Source: Patescibacteria group bacterium
Lineage (GTDB): Bacteria > Patescibacteriota > Patescibacteriia > 2-12-FULL-57-11
Assembly (NCBI GenBank): GCA_004299275.1
Contig: SCSU01000066.1
Span: 14,277-78,276, forward strand
DNA: 64,000 nt
Reading direction: 5' to 3'
In this document: positions 133 to 61,962 of the stretch, piece by piece
Position numbering within the stretch: the stretch's first letter is position 1
Layout of the letters: each line of letters opens with the position of its first letter
Notes under the pieces: generated by a model
Told to the model about the DNA's origin: nothing
Seen by the model: the letters and a program-made list of their open reading frames with translations, nothing else
Database searches by the model: none
Translations under genes and position numbers: made by a program

Positions 133-168
133 GACCTTCAAGGTCTGTTTTACAGACCTTCAAGGTCA
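133..168. repeat. GACCTTCAAGGTC hairpin doublet (TTCAA-loop family), copy 1
   Basis: ttGACCTTCAAGGTCtgttttacaGACCTTCAAGGTCaa. Same architecture as the copies at 7221, 41348 and 59507. Confidence 0.7.
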
Positions 169-4152: not shown

Positions 4153-4261
4153 GTTCCCCTCCTTTGTTTGGGCGCGATGAAGGTATCAGGTAATTTTTTT
4201 TGAGGCAAGTGGATGCTCGCCAGAGGCTCGACCTCCTCAGAGGTCGAGCCTCTGGCGAGCA

Positions 4262-4360
4262 TTCGGTTATTCGTACGTTCGTCGCCTGCTTAGTCGTACT
4301 TTCGCAAAATTCGTAATTCGTAGATTTGTACTGATTCGTAATTCGTAATCCGTAATTCGT
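4262..4360. repeat. TTCGTAA heptamer array (locus B), preceded on the - strand by a hairpin plus T-run terminator
   Basis: attcgtaattcgtagatttgtactgattcgtaattcgtaatccgtaattcgtaaccc. Then ataaaaaaaccgcgagacgtgtagtccgcgg, which is a rho-independent terminator in - sense. Confidence 0.7.
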
Positions 4361-4845: not shown

Positions 4846-4867
4846 GGTGCCTGGGGTGGGACTCGGG
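4846..4867 (-). repeat. 3' fragment of tRNA-Leu (T-loop to CCA), partial direct duplication
   Basis: tggtgcctggggtgggactcg matches the 3' ~20 nt of the intact tRNA at 4996-5078. Perfect hairpins at 4898-4920 and 4951-4996 lie between the fragment and the intact gene. Confidence 0.7.
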
Positions 4868-4995
4868 TTCGCCTTGGAGCGGCTCACCCCTGGGCTTGCG
4901 CCGGTCCGATACCATCGGACCGGCTCGAGCCCGTTCGACTCCCACATTTCGGGAACACTTCGGAAAGCCTCGCATAGAAGCGAGGCTTTCCGAAG

Positions 4996-5078
4996 TGCCT
5001 GGGGTGGGACTCGAACCCACACGGCCTTGCGGCCACTCAATTTTAAGTCGAGCGCGTATACCATTCCGCCACCCAGGC
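4996..5078 (-). tRNA. tRNA-Leu (anticodon TAA), long variable arm
   Basis: 7-bp acceptor stem gcctggg/cccaggc, anticodon loop cttaaaa, T-arm gggttcgagtccc, no encoded CCA. Confidence 0.85.
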
Positions 5079-5348
5079 AAAGCTTTCTTGCAACATCATC
5101 CTTAAGGTACTTTTCCCCTTGGAAGTCTTGAGGTATTTTTCTCTTCTGATTGCGTCATCTTTTGAAAGGAATACCTCGAAAAAGAGCAGTTTAACCGGCA
5201 GCACCCGTCGCGTCGTCCATGTTTTACCCGCGTTATGTTCCTTGATTCTGCTTTCAAGATTTTCAGTTCGGCCAATATAGAGCCTTCCGTCTCTTAAGCT
5301 TACCAAGACGTAAACCGTGTGCATAAAGGAGATTTTACCCAGCACCAC
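5043..5348 (-). CDS. GIY-YIG nuclease-domain protein (YhbQ/UPF0213-like)
   Basis: YVLVSLRDGRLYIGRTENLESRIKEHNAGK...REKYLK. The last 12 codons and the stop overlap the 5' end of tRNA-Leu, and the TAA stop codon is the tRNA anticodon. Confidence 0.75.
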   Translation of the reverse strand: MVLGKISFMHTVYVLVSLRDGRLYIGRTENLESRIKEHNAGKTWTTRRVLPVKLLFFEVFLSKDDAIRREKYLKTSKGKSTLRMMLQESFAWVAEWYTRST

Positions 5349-5388
5349 GTTGGGTGCTGGGTACCCCGTACCCTACGTGGTACGGGGT

Positions 5389-5471
5389 AAGTCGAGCGCG
5401 TATACCACCTGCCCCGTGCCGTCCCCCGACGTAACATCGGGGGACTGGTTCGGGGTTCCGCCACCCAGGCC
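5389..5471 (-). repeat. 5' fragment of tRNA-Leu (positions 1 to ~35) with a 49-bp insertion bearing a perfect 9-bp-stem hairpin
   Basis: taagtcgagcgcgtatacca[cctgccccgtgccGTCCCCCGAcgtaacaTCGGGGGACtggttcggggt]tccgccacccaggcc. Two further perfect hairpins lie at 5347-5388. Confidence 0.7.
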
Positions 5472-16956: not shown

Positions 16957-16987
16957 GAGGTTGGATCTCCCAAGGAGATCCAACCTC
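16957..16987. repeat. GGAGATCC palindromic hairpin (GAGGTTGGATCTCC-caa-GGAGATCCAACCTC)
   Basis: Perfect 14-bp stem; family members at 33631-33662 and 36879-36913. Confidence 0.75.
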
Positions 16988-17121: not shown

Positions 17122-17160
17122 AGAAAACACGCTCCTCTTCACGAGGGGCGTGTTTTCTTT
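17122..17160 (+). terminator. hairpin terminator after tRNA-Gly
   Basis: gaaaacacgctcctcttcacgaggggcgtgttttcttt. Confidence 0.6.
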
Positions 17161-17215
17161 GTAGTCGGTCGTGGGGAGTTGAACCTGCCTGCCGGCTGGC
17201 AGGCGGCAGAAGCGA

Positions 17216-17240
17216 GCCGAGGTGATAATTCAAGACCTGC
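17216..17240. repeat. 22-bp direct repeat (left) flanking the low-GC GH5 island
   Basis: gtgataattcaagacctgcccc; partner at 19405-19430 (gtgataattcaagacctgacccc). Confidence 0.7.
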
Positions 17241-17451
17241 CCCCCGTGTGACGCCCCCCGTGACCCCTTATTGCCCTAGCACCTTCAACATGCGATATTG
17301 TGTAATATGAGACTGTAGAAAAATGATTTTTATTGCCTGATCTTGTCGAAGGCCATAATGAAACGTAGCCAAAAACCCCTTCGACTCCTCCGCCGGCTGG
17401 CGGATTCGCTTGGGGAATAACACTTTTAGGTACTTTTTCTACAGTCTCAAT

Positions 17452-23498: not shown

Positions 23499-23705
23499 AA
23501 CTTTTTGGCGCCCCTCTCTGGCGCGTTATCCACAGTTCAGCGTAACACGAACCTTCCCTGCCTTGTGGATTACTCCTTGTCAAGCCCCCGAGTTTAGTCC
23601 CGAATTTCGTGATTTAAGTTCCCGAGCAAAGTCGAGGGACTACATAAAATCCGCATTTTGATCTCGACTAAGCGCTTCCTTATATATATGATGCCTTTGC
23701 CAGCC

Positions 23706-23737
23706 AAGGTCTGACCTTGCAAGGCCAGACCTTGATG
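23706..23737. repeat. overlapping GACCTTGCAAGG palindromes immediately upstream of tRNA-Leu(TAG)
   Basis: caaGGTCTGACCTTGCAAGGCCAGACCttg. Confidence 0.55.
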
Positions 23738-27922: not shown

Positions 27923-29656
27923 CCTAACCGTTAGTTCGGTGCACGCCGCTTGGGAGCCCCCGAGCGGTTTTTCGTTTCTAAGAGCTTCCGCGTTTGGCGC
28001 ATTGTGTTGACGAGACGTTGTCTTTGGCCACTGACGCTAGTGGGTGTCCAAAGTTCAGCGGAACGTGGCGGGACTTTGACAATTTAATGACGAATAAAAA
28101 GGGTAATGAAAAATAGCTCCATAAGCGCGAAAAGGACGTTTTCGTGCTTCAGTGGAGTGAGAGCATACACTAAGGGCAAACGGTGGATGCCTCGACACAA
28201 GAAGCCGATGAAGGACGTAGCAGCCTGCGATAAGCCCCGGGGAAGTGGCAAGCAACTTTTGATCCGGGGATTTCCGAATGGGGAAACCCATCGTGCTGGA
28301 AGAGCACGGTATCGTGCGCTGAATCCATAGGCGTACGAAGGGCACCTGGCGAAGTGAAACATCTCAGTAGCCAGAGGAAGAGAGACAAAAAATGCTGACC
28401 CAACAGACAACCGACAACTTACAACGAACAACCGAAAGGTTGGGAGTTGTTCGTTGATCGTTGTCCGTTGCGTCAGCTGGATTCCCCTAGTAGTGGCGAG
28501 CGAACGGGGACCAGCCGAAACTCCAGGCGTGATTCACCGAACTGACCCCGACTTTACGTCGGGGCGCAGACGGCTGATGAAGGTGTAGGCCGCTGCGCCT
28601 GGAGGGTAACAGGATCGTGACGTCGGACGCCTACTCGTCCGGGTAGAGGAAACCGCAAGGACATGTCTTCCCAAGCAGAATCCGCTGGAAAGCGGAACCA
28701 GAGCGGGTGATAGTCCCGTACGCGAATGGGGACATAACTCTACTGTCGCGAACCCTCAGTACCGCGGGTCTCGTGAAAGCCTGCGGGAAAGCGCCGCGAC
28801 TATGCGGCAAGGCTAAATACTTCTTGTGATCGATAGTGAACCAGTACCGTGAGGGAAAGGTGAAAAGCAGCCCGGAAGGGCGATGAAACAGTATCTGAAA
28901 CCGTTTGCTTACAAGGAGTCAGAGCCGTGCGCAGCACGGCGACTATCAACTACCAACTATCAACAAAACAACGGTCAATAATTCTGTTGCCCGTTGTGTG
29001 TTGTAAGTTGTGTGTTGGTTGTTGCCGCGCTGTGCGCGGTGATGGCGTTCCTATTGAAGAATGAGCCAACGAGTTTGCCGTGCGTCGCTTAGGTTAAGTC
29101 CCTGAGGGGACGAAGCCGGAGCGAAAGCGAGTCTGAATAGGGCGTATGGACTTTAGAGGCGGAGTTGGAGCCGGCGCGCAAGCGTCAAACCTCCAACTTC
29201 TCACCTCTAATTTCCAAAGGTGGCGCACGCAAGACCCGAAACCCGGTGACCTAGCCATGACCAGGGTGAACTCCGCCGAAAGGCGGAGGGAGGCCCGAAC
29301 CCGTAAGCCGTGCAACACTTTGGGATGAGTCGTGGTTAGCGGAGAAATTCCAATCGAACTGGGTGATAGCTGGTTCTCCCCGAAATAGCTTGAGGGCTAG
29401 CGTCGGTTACACCTCGCGAGGGGTAGAGCACTGAAAGGAAAGCGGTGGAGCAATCCTACGCGTTCCTACCAAACTCCGAATACTCGCGGGGCATCCCGGC
29501 AGTCAGAGCATGGGGGCTAAGCTCCATCGCTCAAAAGGGAAACAGCCCAGATCGCAGTCTAAGGCCCCTAAATCTTCCCGACCTAAAGTCGGGACTCCGA
29601 CACCGCAAGGTCGTCGGAGCGGTTAAGTGTCAAAGGTTGTGGAGTAACTTAAACAA

Positions 29657-29687
<31 letters not shown>

Positions 29688-30780
29688 TAAAGAAAGCGTA
29701 ACAGCTCACTGGTCAAGTCGCTCTGCGCCGAAAATATACCGGGGCTAAAACCGAGTGCCGAAGACGCGACTCCGACGTAAGTCGGAGGGTAGGGGAGCAT
29801 TCTGTCCGCGCTGAAGCCGCGCCGTAAGACGCGGTGGAGCGAACAGAAGGGAGAATGTTGGCATAAGTAGCAAAAAGACGGGTGAGAACCCCGTCCGCCG
29901 TAAACCCAAGGTTTCCTGGGCAACGCAAATCGTCCCAGGGTTAGTCGGTCCTAAGGCGAGGCCAAGAGGCGTAGCCGATGGATGAGCAGGTTAATATTCC
30001 TGCACTACGGCCGTGTCAGGCGCGAGAGGACGCGTCGCAATATCTTCCGAGTTCGAAGGCTACACTTCCGGTGTCGCAAGCCGGCCGCGAGGCAAATCCC
30101 GCGGCGCAAAGCAAGCGATGCCGGCTAGTCTGCGAGTAATCGCGGGCAAGGGAAGAAAATGTGGCGCCTAGAAAAGTCTCGCGATAACGGCATGGCCGCA
30201 CCCGTACCGGAAACCGACACAGGTGGGTGGGCATAAGTGTGCCCAGGCGTACGAGAGAAACATCGTTCAGGAACTCGGCAATACAGCGGCCGTAACTTCG
30301 GGATAAGGCCTACCCCGACGTAAAGTCGGGGTCGCAGCGAAAGACGCTTAGCGACTGTTTACCAAAAACACAGGTCCCTGCGAAGTCGAAAGACAATGTA
30401 TAGGGGCTGATGCCTGGCCAGTGTCAGAACGTTACGGGGAGAGGTCATGGCCGACGCAAGTCGGCCGGCAGCCTTGAACCTAAGCGCTGATGAACGCCGG
30501 CGATAACTATAATCGTCCTAAGGTTCCCTGAATCACTGGCAAGTGGTTCCGGGTAGGACTGGGACGATTATCGAATGGTGAACAAGCAAGCTACCTTGCT
30601 CTGCAGCAATGCAGAGAAAAAGTCCGTTAATGGCTAAATACCTACGTTTCCGAAGAACTAGGTAGGGAAGTCCGATTTTTCGGACCCCGAGAGACCATAC
30701 GCCATGCTCCCGACATACCGTCGGGATGAAGACATGGTCCTTCGTTTAAGGAATCGGAGAGCGAAATTCCTTGTCGGGTG

Positions 30781-30811
<31 letters not shown>

Positions 30812-31050
30812 GAGCGACTGTCTTAACGATGTACTCGGCGAAATTGCAAGATGAGTGAAGATGCTCATTACCCGTGGTTAGACGAAAAGACCCCGTGAAG
30901 CTTTACTACAACTTGCTATTGGCTGCATGCTTCGCCTGTTCAGCGTAGGTGGGAGGTCCGACGAAAGTCGGACCAACAATGAGACACCACCCTTGCGCTG
31001 CGTGCAGTCTCATCTCCGGCCGTGATCCGGCTGGGGAGACAGTAGCTGGT

Positions 31051-31096
<46 letters not shown>

Positions 31097-31166
31097 TTTA
31101 CCAAGGTCGGCTTAGCTCCGATGGAAACGGAGCTGGACGTGCAAGCGCACAAGCCGGCTTTACTGC

Positions 31167-31198
<32 letters not shown>

Positions 31199-31268
31199 AA
31201 GCTAGTGATCCGACCGTTCGAAGTAGGACGGCGGAAGCTCATCGGATAAAAGCTACTCCGGGGATAAC

Positions 31269-32119
31269 CCCAAAAGGGTTGTTGTCCCGATCCGACGGTA
31301 ACGTCGGATCATGAAAACGGCTAATAACGGTGGAGTCCCGCCAGGCGGGATAATACCGTGGGAAGTTCTTCGTCTCATCATCATAATTATGATTGAACGC
31401 GAACGAAATATCGTGATTGGTTGCGTACTTGGCGACGGTTTTCTCCAATCGACCGGAAGACATAACGCGCGGCTGCGGCTCGAGCATTCCATCAAACAGA
31501 AGGAATATCTCGAGTGGAAGTGGCGCGAACTGGCGCGCTATATGCAAGATCGCCCCAAGCGCCTGGTTCGTTGGAATCCGGTTTGGAAAAAACGTTACGA
31601 GTATCTGCGATGCCAATCGCACAGTTCGCCGCAATTCGGCAAGCTTCGGGAATTATTCTATCGCGATCAGACGCGGCAGGTTCCCGATGAGATAGCCAAG
31701 TTGCTGCGCTCGCCGCTCTCGTTGGCGGTTTGGTTTATGGATGACGGATATTACTATACGCGAGATCGCGTAGCGTATATCTATCTTCCTAAACTATCCG
31801 CCGATGACATTCGGCGTTTGTGTCAAGCATTAAATGATGATTTTGATCTTCATCCGAAGGTCGAACGCAAGAAAACTGGGGCACTAAACCTCAAATTTTC
31901 TGCGGCAGAAACGAAAAAATTAATTAAGATAATCGCCCCGCATATAATCAAAAGTATGCGGTACAAAATCGGCGAAGAACCCCGTATCGACTGAGTCCTA
32001 TGGACGAGGTGGCGCAGAGGAGGGAATATCCGCGCCACAATATGCCGTACTCCTTGTCTGGCGAGACAAGGATGAAGATATAGTCAGTGCCCTTAGTAAT
32101 AAGGGAGTAAAACATGAAC
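31269..32119 (+). mobile_element. group I intron 1 in the 23S peptidyl-transferase region (after GGGGATAAC), carrying a LAGLIDADG ORF
   Basis: The exon sequence GATAAC|AGGCTGATC is split by ~850 nt. Confidence 0.75.
31311..31994 (+). CDS. LAGLIDADG homing endonuclease (intron-encoded)
   Basis: Two LAGLIDADG-type motifs, [11 protein letters not shown] and [10 protein letters not shown]. Confidence 0.85.
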
Positions 32120-32200
32120 AGGCTGATCGGGTCCAAGAGTCCACATCGACGACCCGGTTTGGCACCTCGATGTCGGCCCGTCGCATCCTGGGGCTGGAGA

Positions 32201-32937
32201 AAACATACCTTCTCTCCTGCGAGGAAACTCGCGGGTAATAAACAAGCTCAAACGGTAGAGACCACACCATACGACCTTCCTGTTTCGGAGGTCCCAGGTC
32301 TGCTATAGTGCAGATGTATGACGGTTAATGCCGTAGGAAAGGAATGCGTTGAAGTCGATCGAGCATATCTTGCCGGTCTCATTGACGGTGATGGTGCCAT
32401 CATGGCTATCATCGAACCGCACAGTGAGAAGAAATTTCGTTTCCGTGTTCGGATCGAAGTAAAAGTGACTCAAAAGCATGAGGAAGACGTCTCGTTTTTG
32501 CCGAAACTTTTGGGTTGCGGATTGATTCGAACAAATAGGACAACGTATGAGTGGATTACACGAGACCAGCAACATGTCTTGCGTATCCTCTCAATGGTTC
32601 GTCCTTATACGAGAATGAAAAATCGGCAGATGGAAATAGCAATGAAGATCATCCGTACTCCGATACGGACTCAGGGTGATCTTTTGCGCGTTGCTCGATT
32701 GGCAGATGCATTGGCGCGTTTCAACGTGCGATCCAACAATCGCCGTAGGAACTATGCGACAATGATCGAAACGCATTTCTCCTCTAACGACTGATTGGTA
32801 AACGTTGGGTTTACCATGAGATATGCCCCGCCATGGCGGGGGTATCATACGGCTTGCACCTGTGTTGTGTCCGGTGACGGATATCAATATGGTGATGGAA
32901 TAGTCTGATACTCGCGGAAACGCGAGATAACAAAAAT
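32201..32937 (+). mobile_element. group I intron 2 in the 23S (after CCTGGGGCTGgag), carrying a LAGLIDADG ORF
   Basis: The exon sequence GGGGCTG..AGGTCCCAAGGGT is split by ~740 nt. Confidence 0.75.
32318..32794 (+). CDS. LAGLIDADG homing endonuclease (intron-encoded, single-motif type)
   Basis: YLAGLIDGDG motif. Confidence 0.85.
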   Translation: MTVNAVGKECVEVDRAYLAGLIDGDGAIMAIIEPHSEKKFRFRVRIEVKVTQKHEEDVSFLPKLLGCGLIRTNRTTYEWITRDQQHVLRILSMVRPYTRMKNRQMEIAMKIIRTPIRTQGDLLRVARLADALARFNVRSNNRRRNYATMIETHFSSND

Positions 32938-32965
32938 GAGGTCCCAAGGGTTTGGCTGTTCGCCA

Positions 32966-33288
<323 letters not shown>

Positions 33289-33630: not shown

Positions 33631-33662
33631 GAGATCCGATCTCCCATAGGAGATCGGATCTC
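33631..33662. repeat. GGAGATCC palindromic hairpin (GAGATCCGATCTCC-cata-GGAGATCGGATCTC) in the 23S-5S spacer
   Basis: Perfect 14-bp stem. Confidence 0.75.
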
Positions 33663-33687
33663 GATGTCGCTTTGGCCGCAGCATTCT

Positions 33688-33808
33688 CGGTGCCTCGAGC
33701 GAGGTGGTCACACCCGTTCCCATCCCGAACACGGCAGTTAAGCACCTCAGCGCCGATGGTACTTGGCGTAAACTAACGCCCGGGAGAGTAGGCCGGTGCC
33801 GAGTATAT
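33688..33808 (+). rRNA. rrf: 5S rRNA
   Basis: ggtggtcacacccgttcccatcccgaacacggcagttaagc...cccgggagagtaggccggtgccgag. Ends are approximate. Confidence 0.8.
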
Positions 33809-33902
33809 TGAGGCTAAAGTTGGCGCGGGGCAGGCACGGCAGCCCGCCTTCGCAAGCGCTACGGCGGACAAGCAGGCCCCGTACCAAAGCCGCCCAAACA
33901 AG

Positions 33903-34037
33903 GGCGGCTTTTGGTTCGGGGTTAAGCACCTCAGCGCCGACCTGCCCTGTACCGTCCGACGCGCGTCGGACTGGTACGGGGGTGGTACTTGGCGTAAACT
34001 AACGCCCGGGAGAGTAGGCCGGTGCCGAGTATATTGA
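33903..34037 (+). repeat. partial duplicate of the 5S 3' half, interrupted by a 38-nt near-perfect hairpin insertion
   Basis: ggttaagcacctcagcgccga[cctgccctgtaccgtccgacgcgcgtcggactggtacggg]ggtggtacttggcgtaaactaacgcccgggagagtaggccggtgccgagtat, plus the same 3' flank as the intact 5S. Confidence 0.75.
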
Positions 34038-34165
34038 GGCCAAAGCTGGCGCGGGGTAGACCGGCGCCGTGACCCTGAACTCTTTTTGGTTTTATAGTTG
34101 ACGCGGCGGAATAGATGCGATAGCGTTTCTTCACCAATAGTGTCGGGTCGGCGTAACGTTATTCT

Positions 34166-36674: not shown

Positions 36675-37949
36675 ATGAAAACCATCCTTGACCTCCATAT
36701 CCACTCGCGTTTTTCGCGGGCCTGTTCCAAGGACCTCACCCTTCCGAATATCGCCCGGTGGTGCGAGCGGAAGGGGATTGACATTGTGGGCACTGGAGAT
36801 TTTACGCATCCGGTCTGGCTTTCGGAAATCAAAAACCAGCTCACCGAGAGCGAGCCGGGAATTTTTCGGCTCAGGATCGGAGATCCAATCTCCAGAACGG
36901 AGATTGGATCTCCAGCCCGTTTCATGCTCACGACCGAACTTTCCTCAATCTACAAACAGGGCGATAAGGTGCGTCGCGTGCACCATCTAATTTGCATGCC
37001 GACGATCGCGGCAGTAGAGCGTTTGGTCGCGGCGCTGGAAGCGCGCGGCTGTAACCTCAAGTCCGACGGCCGGCCGATTCTCGGCCTGAACTCCAAAGAA
37101 CTTCTACAGATAGTACTGGAAGCTGACAGCCGTTCGCTGCTCATCCCGGCGCACGCTTGGACGCCATGGTTCGCGATTTTCGGCTCGGAGTCCGGGTTTG
37201 ATTCCATTGAAGAATGTTTTGGTGACGAGTTAGCCAAGGAAATCCATGCCATCGAAACCGGACTTTCCTCGGACCCGCCGATGAATTGGCGACTGTCGGC
37301 GCTTGACCGCGTGATGCTCGTTTCCAATTCCGACGCGCACTCGCTCCGGAACCTCGGTCGCGAGGCGAATCAGCTGGACCTTGCCGAGCAGTCTTTTGAC
37401 GCTTTTTCCTCCATTTTGAAAAATCGGGACAGAACACGCTTTCTCCAAACGCTTGAATTTTTTCCCGAGGAGGGCAAGTATCACGCTGACGGCCATCGGC
37501 TCTGCGGCGCGCGCTTGACCCCGGCGGAGACTAAGCGGCAGGGCGGCAAGTGCCCGGTTTGTGGCAAGCCGGTCACGGTCGGCGTGCTCCATCGCGTGGA
37601 CGCGCTCGCCGACCGGCCGGAAGGGACGCGCTCGCCGAGCGCGGTGCCCTTTACCCATTTAGTACCGCTCGAAGAGGTCATTGCCGACACCCTCGGCAAA
37701 GGCAAGGGGACAAAAACCGTGAATGATTTGTATCTGAAGCTGACCGACATTGCGCCGGAGTTCTCGCTGCTCTTTGACTTTCCGCTTGCCGACCTCGCGG
37801 GAAGAGTTGCTGAACCGATTATTGAAGCGCTTCGTCGCTTGCGGGAGGGAAAGGTAAAAGTGCTCCCGGGCTACGACGGCGAGTATGGGACAATCAAAAT
37901 TTTTTCTGAAGAGGAACGACGCGGGCCGGCGCAGGGAAAATTAATTTAA
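36675..37949 (+). CDS. PHP-domain nuclease with a zinc ribbon, endonuclease Q-like
   Basis: LDLHIHSRFS PHP start, conserved His/Asp, and CPVCGKPVTVGVLHRV. Contains an in-frame 35-nt palindromic insertion at 36879-36913. Confidence 0.55.
   Translation: MKTILDLHIHSRFSRACSKDLTLPNIARWCERKGIDIVGTGDFTHPVWLSEIKNQLTESEPGIFRLRIGDPISRTEIGSPARFMLTTELSSIYKQGDKVRRVHHLICMPTIAAVERLVAALEARGCNLKSDGRPILGLNSKELLQIVLEADSRSLLIPAHAWTPWFAIFGSESGFDSIEECFGDELAKEIHAIETGLSSDPPMNWRLSALDRVMLVSNSDAHSLRNLGREANQLDLAEQSFDAFSSILKNRDRTRFLQTLEFFPEEGKYHADGHRLCGARLTPAETKRQGGKCPVCGKPVTVGVLHRVDALADRPEGTRSPSAVPFTHLVPLEEVIADTLGKGKGTKTVNDLYLKLTDIAPEFSLLFDFPLADLAGRVAEPIIEALRRLREGKVKVLPGYDGEYGTIKIFSEEERRGPAQGKLI
36879..36913. repeat. 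GGAGATCC palindromic hairpin inserted in-frame in a CDS (encodes ...GDPISRTEIGSPA...)
   Basis: GGAGATCCAATCTCC-agaac-GGAGATTGGATCTCC, a perfect 15-bp stem. Confidence 0.75.
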
Positions 37950-39736: not shown

Positions 39737-39768
39737 AGGTTAGACCTTGCAAGGTCTAACCTTGACCA
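39737..39768. repeat. perfect palindrome TTAGACCTTGCAAGGTCTAA upstream of tRNA-Ile
   Basis: 20-bp perfect palindrome with the GACCTTGCAAGGTC core shared with 23706-23737. Confidence 0.6.
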
Positions 39769-43984: not shown

Positions 43985-45560
<1,576 letters not shown>

Positions 45561-45675
45561 AGAGAAAACCCCTCTACCCTCGCGGGTTTCGGGGCTCAAT
45601 CAATGAGTCATTACCCAACTTGCCTGCCATAGGCAGGCGTTGTTTTTGTTGTTGGAGTTTCACTCGAAAATTATA

Positions 45676-60704: not shown

Positions 60705-60926
60705 ATGAAACAGCAATTTACCGCGATTTATGAAAAGCGGGGCAAGTGGTATTTGGGCTGGGTGGAAGAGATCCCCGGCGTTAATACGCAGGGGAAAACA
60801 TTGAAAGAAGCAAAAGAAAATCTCAAAGAAGCCCTGGAGCTTATTTTGGAAGTCAACCGCGTAATGTCCCGTAAAGAAATATCCGGCCGGGTCATCCGGG
60901 AGCCTGTAGTTCTCGCGCACACATGA
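60705..60926 (+). CDS. hicB: HicB-family antitoxin
   Basis: IPGVNTQGKTLKEAKENLKEALELIL, typical of the HicB N-terminal domain; overlaps the following gene by 4 nt. Confidence 0.6.
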   Translation: MKQQFTAIYEKRGKWYLGWVEEIPGVNTQGKTLKEAKENLKEALELILEVNRVMSRKEISGRVIREPVVLAHT

Positions 60927-61108
60927 AACGGAAAAGCCTCATTCGACACATCCTCAAAGCGGGATGTGTTTTCATACGTGAGGGAGCGAACCATAGCGTA
61001 TTTTTTAATCCGTCGCTTCGACGAACATCAACCGTGCCGCGTCACGCTGAAGTTGACGATTTCCTGGCCAAGAAAATTTGCGAAGATTTGGGTATTTCGC
61101 CACCGTGA
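60923..61108 (+). CDS. hicA: HicA-family toxin (mRNA interferase)
   Basis: 61 aa with GCVFIREGANHSVFFNP...VPRH.E.....KICEDLGI. Confidence 0.6.
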   Translation: MKRKSLIRHILKAGCVFIREGANHSVFFNPSLRRTSTVPRHAEVDDFLAKKICEDLGISPP

Positions 61109-61194
61109 CAAATTTTGGCGTTTTGATTGTCGGCTGAGGACCGAAAATTGACCTGGAGAATTTTTTAGAGTACCATCGTGCCGCCGCGATGCAT

Positions 61195-61216
61195 GGCCCC
61201 ATCGTCTAACGGCTAG
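61195..61216 (+). repeat. 5' fragment of tRNA-Glu (acceptor to D-loop), followed by two perfect hairpins
   Basis: ggccccatcgtctaacggctag equals the first 22 nt of the intact tRNA-Glu at 61539. Then CCCGGCgaCCCTGGCaaaGCCAGGGgGCCGGG and TCCGGCctGCGGCttctGCCGCggtaGCCGGA. Confidence 0.7.
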
Positions 61217-61280
61217 CCCGGCGACCCTGGCAAAGCCAGGGGCCGGGTCCGGCCTGCGGCTTCTGCCGCGGTAGCCGGAG

Positions 61281-61553
61281 ATGCCACATACCATGTATTA
61301 CGTTTACATTCTCGAACGCTTGAAAGACGCTCGATGGTACATTGGCAGTACAAAAAATGTTGAGGAGCGACTCACCTATCACAATGCCGGGAAAATCACG
61401 TCAACGCGTCCCCATCGGCCTTATCGGCTTGTCTATCTCGAATCGTTCGAGAACAAAACTCAAGCGCTTCTCCGTGAGAAACAAATCAAAAAATCGGGTA
61501 TCATCCGGAAAGCGATTAAATCGCGAGTTGAAAAATACGGCCCCATCGTCTAA
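61281..61553 (+). CDS. GIY-YIG nuclease-domain protein (YhbQ/UPF0213-like), second copy
   Basis: YYVYILERLKDARWYIGSTKNVEERLTYHNAGK...REKQIK. The stop codon TAA lies in the D-loop of the downstream tRNA-Glu (15-nt overlap). Confidence 0.75.
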   Translation: MPHTMYYVYILERLKDARWYIGSTKNVEERLTYHNAGKITSTRPHRPYRLVYLESFENKTQALLREKQIKKSGIIRKAIKSRVEKYGPIV

Positions 61554-61610
61554 CGGCTAGGACGCCACGCTTTCAATGTGGCAATGGGGGTTCGATTCCC
61601 CCTGGGGCTA
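61539..61610 (+). tRNA. tRNA-Glu (anticodon TTC)
   Basis: ggcccca..gtctaacggctaggac..ccacgcTTTCaatgtgg..gggggttcgattccccc..tggggct+a. Confidence 0.85.
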
Positions 61611-61648
61611 AACACAAACCCGTCACACAAGGTGACGGGTTTGTGTTT
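61611..61648 (+). terminator. perfect 16-bp-stem hairpin immediately after tRNA-Glu
   Basis: AACACAAACCCGTCACacaagGTGACGGGTTTGTGTT; another perfect hairpin lies at 61716-61749. Confidence 0.55.
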
Positions 61649-61779
61649 AGCTCTGAGGTGGAAGGGGAATCGAACGGGCAGAAGCGAGACAATCCCGCCA
61701 TAGGCGGGAGCAGACGAGCGTCGGCAACGCCAATGGCTTGGCGTTGCCGCTGCCCAGGACAAGGAGCGTAAGCGACGCG

Positions 61780-61797
61780 TAATTCCCCCTGGGGTTA
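61780..61797 (+). repeat. 3' fragment of tRNA-Glu (T-loop to acceptor)
   Basis: taattccccctggggtta versus cgattccccctggggcta in the intact gene. Confidence 0.55.
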
Positions 61798-61833
61798 ATA
61801 ATTTCCTCCTCACTTTTGTGGGGAGAAAATTTT

Positions 61834-61905
61834 TATTCTCGCGGGAATCGAACCCGCCTTCGCTAATTCAGCCGTCGTAGCTATAGGCTACCATGGCGGA
61901 GTTGG
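61834..61905 (-). pseudogene. tRNA-like remnant (T-arm and D-arm present, acceptor stem cannot close)
   Basis: gcggg-aatcgaa-cccgc (reverse complement of a T-arm) and gtagctataggctac D-arm-like segment on the - strand; no 7-bp acceptor pairing found. Confidence 0.3.
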
Positions 61906-61962
61906 CAGTTTCTGCGGGCAGGCAGGGGAGGGCGTCGGTGGAATAAAAAAAGACCGCGCGCT

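Follow-up and report, generated by a model that had tools for sequence, protein, structure and literature searches.

Hairpin-associated GIY-YIG nuclease genes set among tRNA fragments in a Patescibacteria contig: candidate selfish cassettes of stable-RNA genes

Results

GIY-YIG genes and intact tRNA genes between tRNA fragments

We analysed a 64-kb stretch of DNA (the window; 56.6% GC) from a Patescibacteria (candidate phyla radiation, CPR) contig derived from a metagenome-assembled genome (MAG). Two of its tRNA genes, tRNA-Leu(TAA) and tRNA-Glu(TTC), are each accompanied by a small open reading frame (ORF) for a GIY-YIG nuclease, by hairpins and by fragments of the same tRNA (Table 1). tRNAs were called with ARAGORN and Rfam, and tRNA pieces were mapped by k-mer comparison with the intact tRNAs. 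Both GIY-YIG proteins are identical to NCBI entries of 'Patescibacteria group bacterium'. An earlier note, made from the sequence alone, had described a five-part arrangement at tRNA-Leu: a 5' tRNA fragment with a hairpin insertion, a GIY-YIG ORF, an intact tRNA, perfect hairpins and a 3' tRNA fragment. Sequence reading, ARAGORN, ORF listing and k-mer comparison confirmed all parts, with coordinates agreeing to within 1-2 nucleotides. The possibility, raised at the time, that the fragments are chance matches of about 20 nucleotides was not borne out; the chance of exact 15- to 22-nucleotide matches in 64 kb is about 1e-5 or less.

At the Leu locus, the 5' tRNA fragment begins 3 nucleotides past the PolX stop codon and is interrupted in its D-loop by a hairpin insertion. 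This insertion had been given as 49 bp; it is present, is 48 nucleotides long and is nested, having an outer stem (CCCCGAACC..GGCACGGGG) of the same family as HP1, the first hairpin of the twin hairpin described below, and an inner hairpin in its loop. The twin hairpin itself lies between the tRNA fragment and the ORF. It is a key conserved feature that the earlier note did not recognise. At this locus HP1 is CCCCGTACC-ACGTAG-GGTACGGGG and HP2 is CCCAGCACC-CAACGT-GGTGCTGGG, and directly after them stands AAAATC, which equals tRNA positions 36-41. The ORF takes its last 36 nucleotides from tRNA positions 1-36, with the anticodon serving as its TAA stop. Downstream of the intact tRNA both of the perfect hairpins reported previously were found, with stems of 18 and 11 bp instead of 10 and 16, the first of them terminator-like. 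The second (4924-4900) belongs to a T-loop module in which the T-loop and T-stem of the same tRNA recur in inverted orientation (GTGGGAGTCGAAC, 4944-4932), together with a GGGC..GCCC closing stem. CCA is encoded in four of five syntenic relatives; in the window the inner tRNA-Leu lacks it, whereas the outer 3' fragment carries it. Farther downstream, a 23-bp perfect hairpin (50 nucleotides, 4213-4262) lies in or beside the DUF5680 ORF region.

The recurrence of this architecture at tRNA-Glu, also claimed earlier, held up, and the architecture was seen again in another Patescibacteria genome (L134). At the Glu locus, tRNA-Glu sequence resumes after the two hairpins that follow the 5' fragment (GATGCCAC, 61280-61287, about positions 23-30). 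The ORF, 47% identical to the Leu-locus ORF by BLASTP, runs 15 nucleotides into the intact tRNA. The T-loop module opens with a degenerate copy of tRNA positions ~39-53, followed by an inverted T-loop (GGGGAATCGAAC), and within it GGGCAGAAGCGAGACAA...GCTGCCCAGGAC encloses two hairpins; its layout parallels that of the Leu module, although the two align poorly in sequence. Since tRNA sequence extends to about position 30 on one side and resumes from about position 39 on the other, little is missing from the outer tRNA-Glu copy, which the ORF, the intact tRNA and the terminator-like hairpin divide near the anticodon arm. L134 has the whole five-part layout at tRNA-Glu, with an ORF 53% identical to the Glu ORF and a homologous T-loop module (GAACGGGCAGAAGYGAGACAA ... 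GCTGCCCAGGAC). The TCCGGC..GCCGGA hairpin is common to both genomes, with an additional hairpin nested in the loop of the window copy. In each genome the fragments and the inverted T-loop piece match that genome's own tRNA.

Directly upstream of the Glu locus is a HicB-like (UPF0150)/HicA toxin-antitoxin pair (60705-61108). Beside the locus (61830-61930), a perfect T-arm-like sequence, GCGGGTTCGATTCCCGC, occupies 61857-61842 of the minus strand; neither ARAGORN nor Rfam called a tRNA or transfer-messenger RNA (tmRNA) on the minus strand of this interval. A tRNA or tmRNA on the opposite strand was also considered as the source of the inverted T-arm pieces and was rejected, with no ARAGORN or Rfam call and with stems that do not pair.

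Table 1. Features of the tRNA-Leu, tRNA-Glu and 5S rRNA loci, and long palindromes, in window coordinates
Feature	Position	Strand	Evidence
5' tRNA-Leu fragment, positions 1-15 (outer non-functional copy)	5470-5456	-	exact match
48-nt nested hairpin in D-loop (15/16) of 5' fragment	5455-5408	-	fold z=-5.2
5' tRNA-Leu fragment, positions 16-35, ending in anticodon loop	5407-5388	-	exact match
Twin hairpin HP1+HP2	5387-5338	-	covariance-model match 71.6 bits, E=4e-16; fold z=-4.6
GIY-YIG single-domain nuclease ORF, 93 aa, Leu clade	ATG 5324 to stop 5043	-	Pfam PF01541 E=2e-16
Intact tRNA-Leu(TAA), CCA not encoded	5078-4995	-	ARAGORN; Rfam 60.3 bits
Perfect 18-bp hairpin, terminator-like, directly after tRNA-Leu	4997-4956	-	folding
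Leu T-loop module (inverted T-loop/T-stem, closing stem, hairpin)	4955-4866	-	folding
3' tRNA-Leu fragment CGAGTCCCACCCCAGGCACCA, T-loop C56 to CCA	4865-4845	-	positions 66-84 exact, plus CA
Terminator after Leu 3' fragment	4838-4822	-	
Promoter-like site TTGACC-17-TACCAT, 19 nt upstream of Glu 5' fragment	61148-61176	+	consensus match only
5' tRNA-Glu fragment, positions 1-22 (outer copy)	61195-61216	+	exact match
Two adjacent nested hairpins, CCCGGC..GCCGGG and TCCGGC..GCCGGA, at 22/23	61217-61279	+	fold z=-5.8
GIY-YIG ORF, 86 aa, Glu clade	61293-61553	+	Pfam E=3e-16
Intact tRNA-Glu(TTC)	61539-61610	+	ARAGORN, Rfam
Perfect 20-bp hairpin, terminator-like	61607-61651	+	folding
Glu T-loop module	61652-61781	+	conserved with L134 (alignment)
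3' tRNA-Glu fragment (ATTCCCCCTGGGGtT)	61782-61796	+	copy ATTCCCCCTGGGG at 61782-61794
Terminator after Glu 3' fragment	61806-61825	+	
Intact 5S rRNA	33686-33804		
Hairpin after 5S, before partial 5S copy	33876-33921		
Second nested hairpin, interrupting partial 5S copy	33941-33982		
Long perfect palindromes	16957-16987, 33631-33662, 36879-36913, 39737-39762, 23700-23735, 140-160		

A family of small GIY-YIG ORFs with a twin hairpin

Relatives of the ORF were collected in a scan with a narrow alignment, keeping one genome per species, which yielded 49 loci from Patescibacteria lineages, Planctomycetota, Omnitrophota, Zixibacteria, Nitrospirota-like bacteria and others. The homologous proteins are 77-101 residues long; the two window proteins contain PF01541 as their sole domain, with matches that exceed the gathering score. 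In an alignment of 33 sequences that includes both of them, Y16, G18, R26, H30 and E62 are invariant and Y5 is at least 90% conserved. Of the 49 ORFs, most seem full-length and keep the conserved motifs; truncation or decay was seen in four or five. The nearest solved structures are the UPF0213 proteins 1zg2 and 1ywl, followed by SLX1, a structure-specific nuclease. In a neighbour-joining tree the ORFs that abut the 5' end of tRNA-Leu form one cluster; ORF clades track both configuration and target, and nuclease clade and hairpin type go together.

The observation that the Leu ORF ends within the tRNA, with the anticodon as its stop, is correct for this locus. In the relatives, however, the ORF has its own stop 0-14 nucleotides before the tRNA, and only one other ORF (P0009) was seen to read into tRNA-Leu(TAA). 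Because the relatives stop just short of the tRNA, the overlap is best read as a local loss of the stop codon, incidental to the element and not a design feature.

The twin hairpin was found with a covariance model ~15-120 nucleotides upstream of the ORF in about 40 of the 49 loci; about eight loci have a further copy on the 3' side of the ORF. Its consensus, ACC-ACGTAG-GGT / ACC-CTACGT-GGT, is an inverted duplicate pair. When 17 copies are aligned, pairing extends to 98.3% of cells, and 13 of the 18 pairs show compensatory changes; none of 500 shuffles matched this pairing, and register shifts likewise fell far below it. The hairpin scores equally on both strands and G-U pairs are rare, which favours a structure that probably acts at the level of DNA. 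Folding, which the earlier note had proposed as a check, supported the D-loop insert, the twin hairpin and the Glu hairpins of the window (z-scores in Table 1).

In nearly every copy, the sequence directly 5' of the twin hairpin is tRNA-derived. It may be a full tRNA 3' end, whose CCA is often the base of hairpin 1, or a 3' fragment without a called tRNA; further contexts are the Leu anticodon loop (ending ..GACTYA), the D-loop and the T-loop (ending GGTTC). Solo hairpins and arrays occur as well. About five twin hairpins follow each of tRNA-Arg and tRNA-Ala in L017 (671-1425), four alternate between anticodon-loop and T-loop contexts in L019 (1854-2183), and a Melioribacteraceae locus (L044, 1122-2100) has tandem repeats of the GIY-YIG ORF plus a 3' tRNA-Leu fragment.

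Association with tRNA genes and variation of the junctions

A same-strand tRNA abuts the ORF, that is, lies no more than 130 nucleotides 3' or 300 nucleotides 5' of it, in 31 of the 49 loci, where the tRNA density of control loci would predict 0.7% (P~5e-54). At many of the other 18, a tRNA 3' fragment abuts the hairpin. Two configurations were seen. In configuration A, the ORF stops 0-14 nucleotides before tRNA position 1, the tRNA is tRNA-Leu in 10 of 11 cases, and a 5' tRNA fragment lies upstream; in configuration B, the ORF begins 56-290 nucleotides after the end of a tRNA (Asn, Gln, Ser, Trp, His, Tyr or Lys), and several such loci have a 3' tRNA fragment beyond the ORF. The two closest relatives of the Leu ORF are at L132 and L130. 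L132 is clean, with tRNA positions 1-35, the twin hairpin, AAATC, the ORF, 4 nucleotides and intact tRNA-Leu(TAA) in succession. L130 is permuted; in it a 5' fragment with hairpins is followed by the intact tRNA, the ORF, the twin hairpin and lastly the 3' part of the tRNA, which carries a further hairpin in its T-loop.

Breaks always fall in the D-, anticodon- or T-loops or at the tRNA 3' end, so that the placement of breaks in tRNA loops, noted before at one locus, extends across loci. Every event has the form X, then hairpins with or without the ORF, then X again, where X is a tRNA segment from the D-, anticodon or T-loop to the gene end; one intact tRNA copy therefore always survives. Both kinds of event are present in the window, one on each side of the intact tRNA. 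The junctions vary by lineage (Leu 15/16, 21/22 and 33-36; Glu 13/14 versus 22/23, differing between the window and L134; T-loop 55-58; 3' end). Because one ancestral insertion cannot yield differing junctions, we infer that insertions happened repeatedly and independently. Fragments without any mismatch to the local tRNA were seen in the window, L132 and L134; in L001 and L004 fragment and local tRNA differ.

Integrases classically cross over in the anticodon loop, the T-loop and the 3' end of tRNA genes, and elements integrated in this way characteristically duplicate part of the tRNA while leaving one gene intact. The loci might thus be scars of island or prophage integration and excision, with attL/attR direct repeats and with the GIY-YIG gene as a passenger remnant. 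This is very unlikely. Neither locus has an integrase within it or close by, and the inserts are short, at 130-400 bp. Duplication of 5' segments and breaks in the D-loop are unusual for such elements, and the same ORF and hairpin fill the insert in dozens of lineages. No integrase, transposase, or tyrosine or serine recombinase was found near the loci, where the ORFs are GIY-YIG, PolX, DUF5680 and HicAB only; the integrase scar was rejected as a candidate, no recombinase being present.

The position of the Leu break likewise recalls a different kind of element, a degenerate group I intron that carries a GIY-YIG homing-endonuclease ORF and interrupts tRNA-Leu(UAA) at its anticodon loop. That loop is the classical place for bacterial tRNA introns, and introns often carry GIY-YIG ORFs. 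Group I introns have been described at 35/36 in tRNAs of Patescibacteria, and the window contains another group I intron elsewhere. Yet what follows the ORF is a complete tRNA from position 1 and not a 3' exon, the sole conserved non-coding element is the 50-nucleotide twin hairpin, and the same cassette also occurs after tRNA 3' ends and in D- and T-loops. Rfam at E<=1 gave no Intron_gpI signal, no other ribozyme and no match to a further family at either locus; the Intron_gpI model reaches 79 bits at another place in the window. We rejected the intron as a candidate on the Rfam result and regard it as highly improbable.

Relatives with and without the module had been suggested as a comparison. 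A metagenome scan with the PolX C-terminus returned 80 loci, the closest 65-68% identical and none above 68%. In the closest, a same-strand tRNA-Leu(TAA) lies 0.6-1.5 kb downstream, without GIY-YIG, hairpins or fragments. Syntenic relatives thus do carry a plain tRNA-Leu gene, which we take, from these sequences, as the background state in the lineage, although at this identity they are not isogenic with the window.

Collapsed or chimeric joins of strain variants at a repeated tRNA sequence could in principle imitate such loci, since the window comes from a MAG and repeats of 20-35 nucleotides can confuse assemblers. The same ordered architecture is found, however, in independent NCBI, JGI and ENA assemblies, including complete chromosomes, so an assembly artefact is excluded for practical purposes and we give it next to no weight. 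The architecture is real, non-random and widely recurrent.

A separate arrangement was observed in a Phycisphaerales MAG (L014, 424-1181). There, tRNA-Asn is split at ~35/36 by an insert of ~580 nucleotides with an apparent HNH-like motif. In its position the split recalls that reported for group I introns of Patescibacteria. Additional 5' fragments occur there, and a GIY-YIG cassette follows the same split tRNA-Asn.

5S rRNA and other stable-RNA genes of the window

The phenomenon is not strictly tRNA-specific, for 5S rRNA is also affected. The 5S locus (33686-34060) consists of an intact gene, hairpins and a partial copy, without a nuclease ORF; the partial copy runs from about position 45 and includes ~40 nucleotides of duplicated 3' flank. 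Four hairpins of the window share the outer stem CCYGWACC..GGYWCRGG, where 0.01 would be expected; two are at the Leu locus and two downstream of the 5S gene, and three of the four have a hairpin nested in the loop. Since this hairpin family splits the 5S copy and most of its members bear a further hairpin in their loop, insertion seems, from its sequence contexts, to target unpaired loops of folded single strands in general. The earlier view of a module tied to tRNA genes therefore stands as regards the abutting tRNAs and the intact tRNA that is always kept, and falls short as regards 5S.

Terminator-like hairpins directly follow tRNA-Leu, -Glu, -Gly and -Ile, and the first hairpin after each looks like an ordinary bidirectional terminator. 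At tRNA-Gly(GCC) (17122-17270), beyond the terminator-like hairpin, the T-loop of that tRNA recurs in inverted orientation as GGGGAGTTGAACC (17173-17185), and after it stands GGCAGAAGCGAG, the motif known from the Glu T-loop module. An ORF is absent, and no clear 3' fragment could be made out. Judged by its sequence, this arrangement may be a decayed scar of older date.

Long perfect palindromes of two families, the GAGATCCGATCTCC type and the AGGTCTRACCTTGCAAGGTYAGACCT type, stand 25-60 nucleotides upstream of tRNA-Gly, 5S, tRNA-Ile and tRNA-Leu(TAG), where they may have a regulatory role or be associated with the promoters of these stable-RNA genes. The rRNA genes of the window are unlinked, with 16S at 43989-45566 on the strand opposite to the 23S region. 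Within 28160-33230, two LAGLIDADG endonuclease ORFs (31311-31994 and 32318-32794) and a group I intron match (32887-33227) come after the 23S region.

Discussion

The sequences suggest that each locus is a tRNA gene colonised by a selfish, hairpin-guided GIY-YIG cassette through duplicative insertion into stable-RNA genes, a reading that we hold to be an even call. The comparisons lend indirect support to mobility of the cassette. Among known elements, it is most likely a new, tRNA- and 5S-associated variant of the selfish nuclease-plus-hairpin elements typified by Ssn. Literature searches found no report that links GIY-YIG or Ssn genes to tRNA genes or describes this architecture, in agreement with the earlier note, which knew of none; Ssn is a close conceptual precedent (PMC11893778).

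If this reading is right, the outer 5' and 3' tRNA pieces would be the split remains of one tRNA copy, with the nuclease gene and a complete tRNA between them; the left piece would keep the native promoter, and the right piece the terminator plus, at Leu, the CCA end. By analogy with Ssn, the nuclease would bind its own hairpin in single-stranded DNA (ssDNA), for example in the displaced strand of a highly transcribed stable-RNA gene, and would nick near the hairpin or in exposed loops. Copy-repair from a cassette-bearing template, or fill-in of staggered nicks, could then duplicate the flanking tRNA segment and install the cassette. Transcription of the cassette would start at the tRNA promoter, with RNase P cutting at tRNA position 1 and so parting the mRNA from the tRNA. 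With the sole working tRNA inside the cassette, the host could not easily lose it. More speculatively, the flipped T-loop of the 3' modules would fit a T-arm cruciform resolved into hairpin-capped ends.

Three routes are candidates for the insertion: Campbell-type integration of a circle bearing a tRNA segment, staggered-nick fill-in, and one-ended copy-repair. The tRNA could have come from local duplication or have been imported with the cassette. Fragments identical to the intact tRNA, as in the window, L132 and L134, are compatible with any of the three routes, whereas those of L001 and L004, which differ from it, argue against a simple target-site duplication.

Several results weigh against colonisation by a mobile cassette. 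No isogenic pair of filled and empty sites was found, the PolX relatives being only 65-68% identical, and two peptide patterns retrieved no relatives from viral contigs in IMG/VR, so that no transfer vehicle emerged. GIY-YIG enzymes are hydrolytic, and the joining and duplication step, itself postulated, has no catalyst assigned to it. Simple duplicative insertion leaves the inverted T-loop segment of the 3' modules unexplained. The five-part layout is shared by the window and L134 at only 53% ORF identity, a conservation that could reflect long-term vertical retention or a host function instead of ongoing mobility. As to the Ssn comparison, the SRM consensus (HGTCWY..YYVSBRH..WNVSBRG..RNCYNB) had no match in 51 flanks (shuffled mean 0.1), and the NTS motif had none in the window; the ORFs are likened to Ssn by size, residues and gene-plus-hairpin logic, and for them cd10448 membership and ssDNA specificity are putative.

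The shared layout also bears on a different explanation, in which an immobile, domesticated Ssn-like nuclease and its hairpins are maintained by the host beside stable-RNA genes, the tRNA and 5S fragments being by-products of hairpin-induced replication slippage or repair. In the host it might, for example, modulate recombination or transformation, or process ssDNA where transcription is strong. The Ssn of Neisseria has been proposed to be domesticated and to modulate transformation (PMC11893778), and the conserved layout at 53% identity, the intact majority of ORFs and the 5S hairpins without an ORF would all fit. Against this, several features are typical of selfish turnover: junctions that differ among lineages, tandem arrays and decayed copies (L044, L017, L045, L047), foreign-looking fragments in L001 and L004, and syntenic relatives without the module. 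We think domestication unlikely, though it deserves a hearing.

The selfish-cassette reading can be taken further, to a 'hostage-taking' homing element. A minimal GIY-YIG nuclease, guided by element-specific hairpins, would cut exposed single-stranded or cruciform loops of stable-RNA genes and replace the resident gene with a cassette that bears its own gene and the only intact tRNA, and so makes itself essential; expressed through the tRNA promoter and RNase P, it would need no integrase, transposase or ribozyme. This fuller version is possible but rather doubtful. Were the selfish-cassette reading correct, Ssn-type nuclease and hairpin pairs would gain a concrete genomic lifestyle, the colonisation of tRNA and 5S genes, and there would be a recombinase-free route for invading essential RNA genes while preserving them. 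That reading would make testable why tRNA loops are universal hot spots of insertion, and would offer a natural set of small nucleases with co-evolving hairpin specificities as potential ssDNA tools. Annotation is affected as well: in CPR and other MAGs, pieces of tRNA and copies split by hairpins can lead to wrong calls or mask tRNAs.

Comparison with known systems

SegB of phage T4 is a free-standing GIY-YIG homing endonuclease in a tRNA gene cluster. Like it, the present ORFs are GIY-YIG genes beside tRNA genes, with a proposed spread by break-induced copying and co-conversion of flanks. Seg proteins, however, are ~200-250 residues long, have a separate DNA-binding domain, are phage-borne and are not known to leave tRNA fragments or hairpins, whereas the window ORFs comprise only the catalytic domain. 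If the ORF were a free-standing homing gene, a target site confined to tRNA sequence would also be present in the internal intact tRNA.

Integrative elements that target tRNA genes use the anticodon loop, T-loop and 3' end and rely on a tyrosine integrase. As in tRNA islands, a tRNA segment is duplicated here, one intact gene survives and a displaced fragment marks the far end. Unlike them, these loci have no recombinase, inserts of 0.13-0.4 kb, 5'-segment duplications, D-loop sites and hairpin insertions nested inside hairpin loops. The IS200/IS605 and REP/RAYT systems also combine a small gene with palindromic repeats recognised as ssDNA hairpins, and their non-autonomous hairpin copies multiply, as do those of the L017 and L019 arrays. 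They use HUH Y1 transposases with covalent intermediates and are not known for tRNA-loop targeting or long target duplications, whereas the only ORF in the present unit is a hydrolytic GIY-YIG and not an HUH Y1 transposase. Group I introns of CPR tRNAs share the anticodon-loop location and the possibility of endonuclease ORFs, for which HNH, and not GIY-YIG, has been reported in Patescibacteria; in contrast, there is no ribozyme here, and the intact tRNA is adjacent and is not a spliced product.

Judged by its sequence features, the Ssn family appears to be the closest described system and a conceptual precedent. Ssn nucleases are single-domain GIY-YIG proteins of 94 residues, with catalytic Y6, Y17 and E64 in SsnA, that bind hairpin repeats flanking their own gene and cut ssDNA a few nucleotides upstream; the report of them makes no mention of tRNA (Chenal et al. 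2025, PMC11893778). The present ORFs are alike in being ~90-residue single-domain GIY-YIG proteins without a DNA-binding domain, with Y5, Y16 and E62 at the corresponding residues. They resemble Ssn, too, in that the gene is accompanied by its own hairpin repeats (20-50 nucleotides), with solo copies elsewhere that give an insertion-sequence-like look, and in that each nuclease lineage has its own hairpin variant. Unlike those of Ssn, the hairpins here are twin, have ACGTAG/CTACGT loops and are almost always fused to tRNA-derived sequence.

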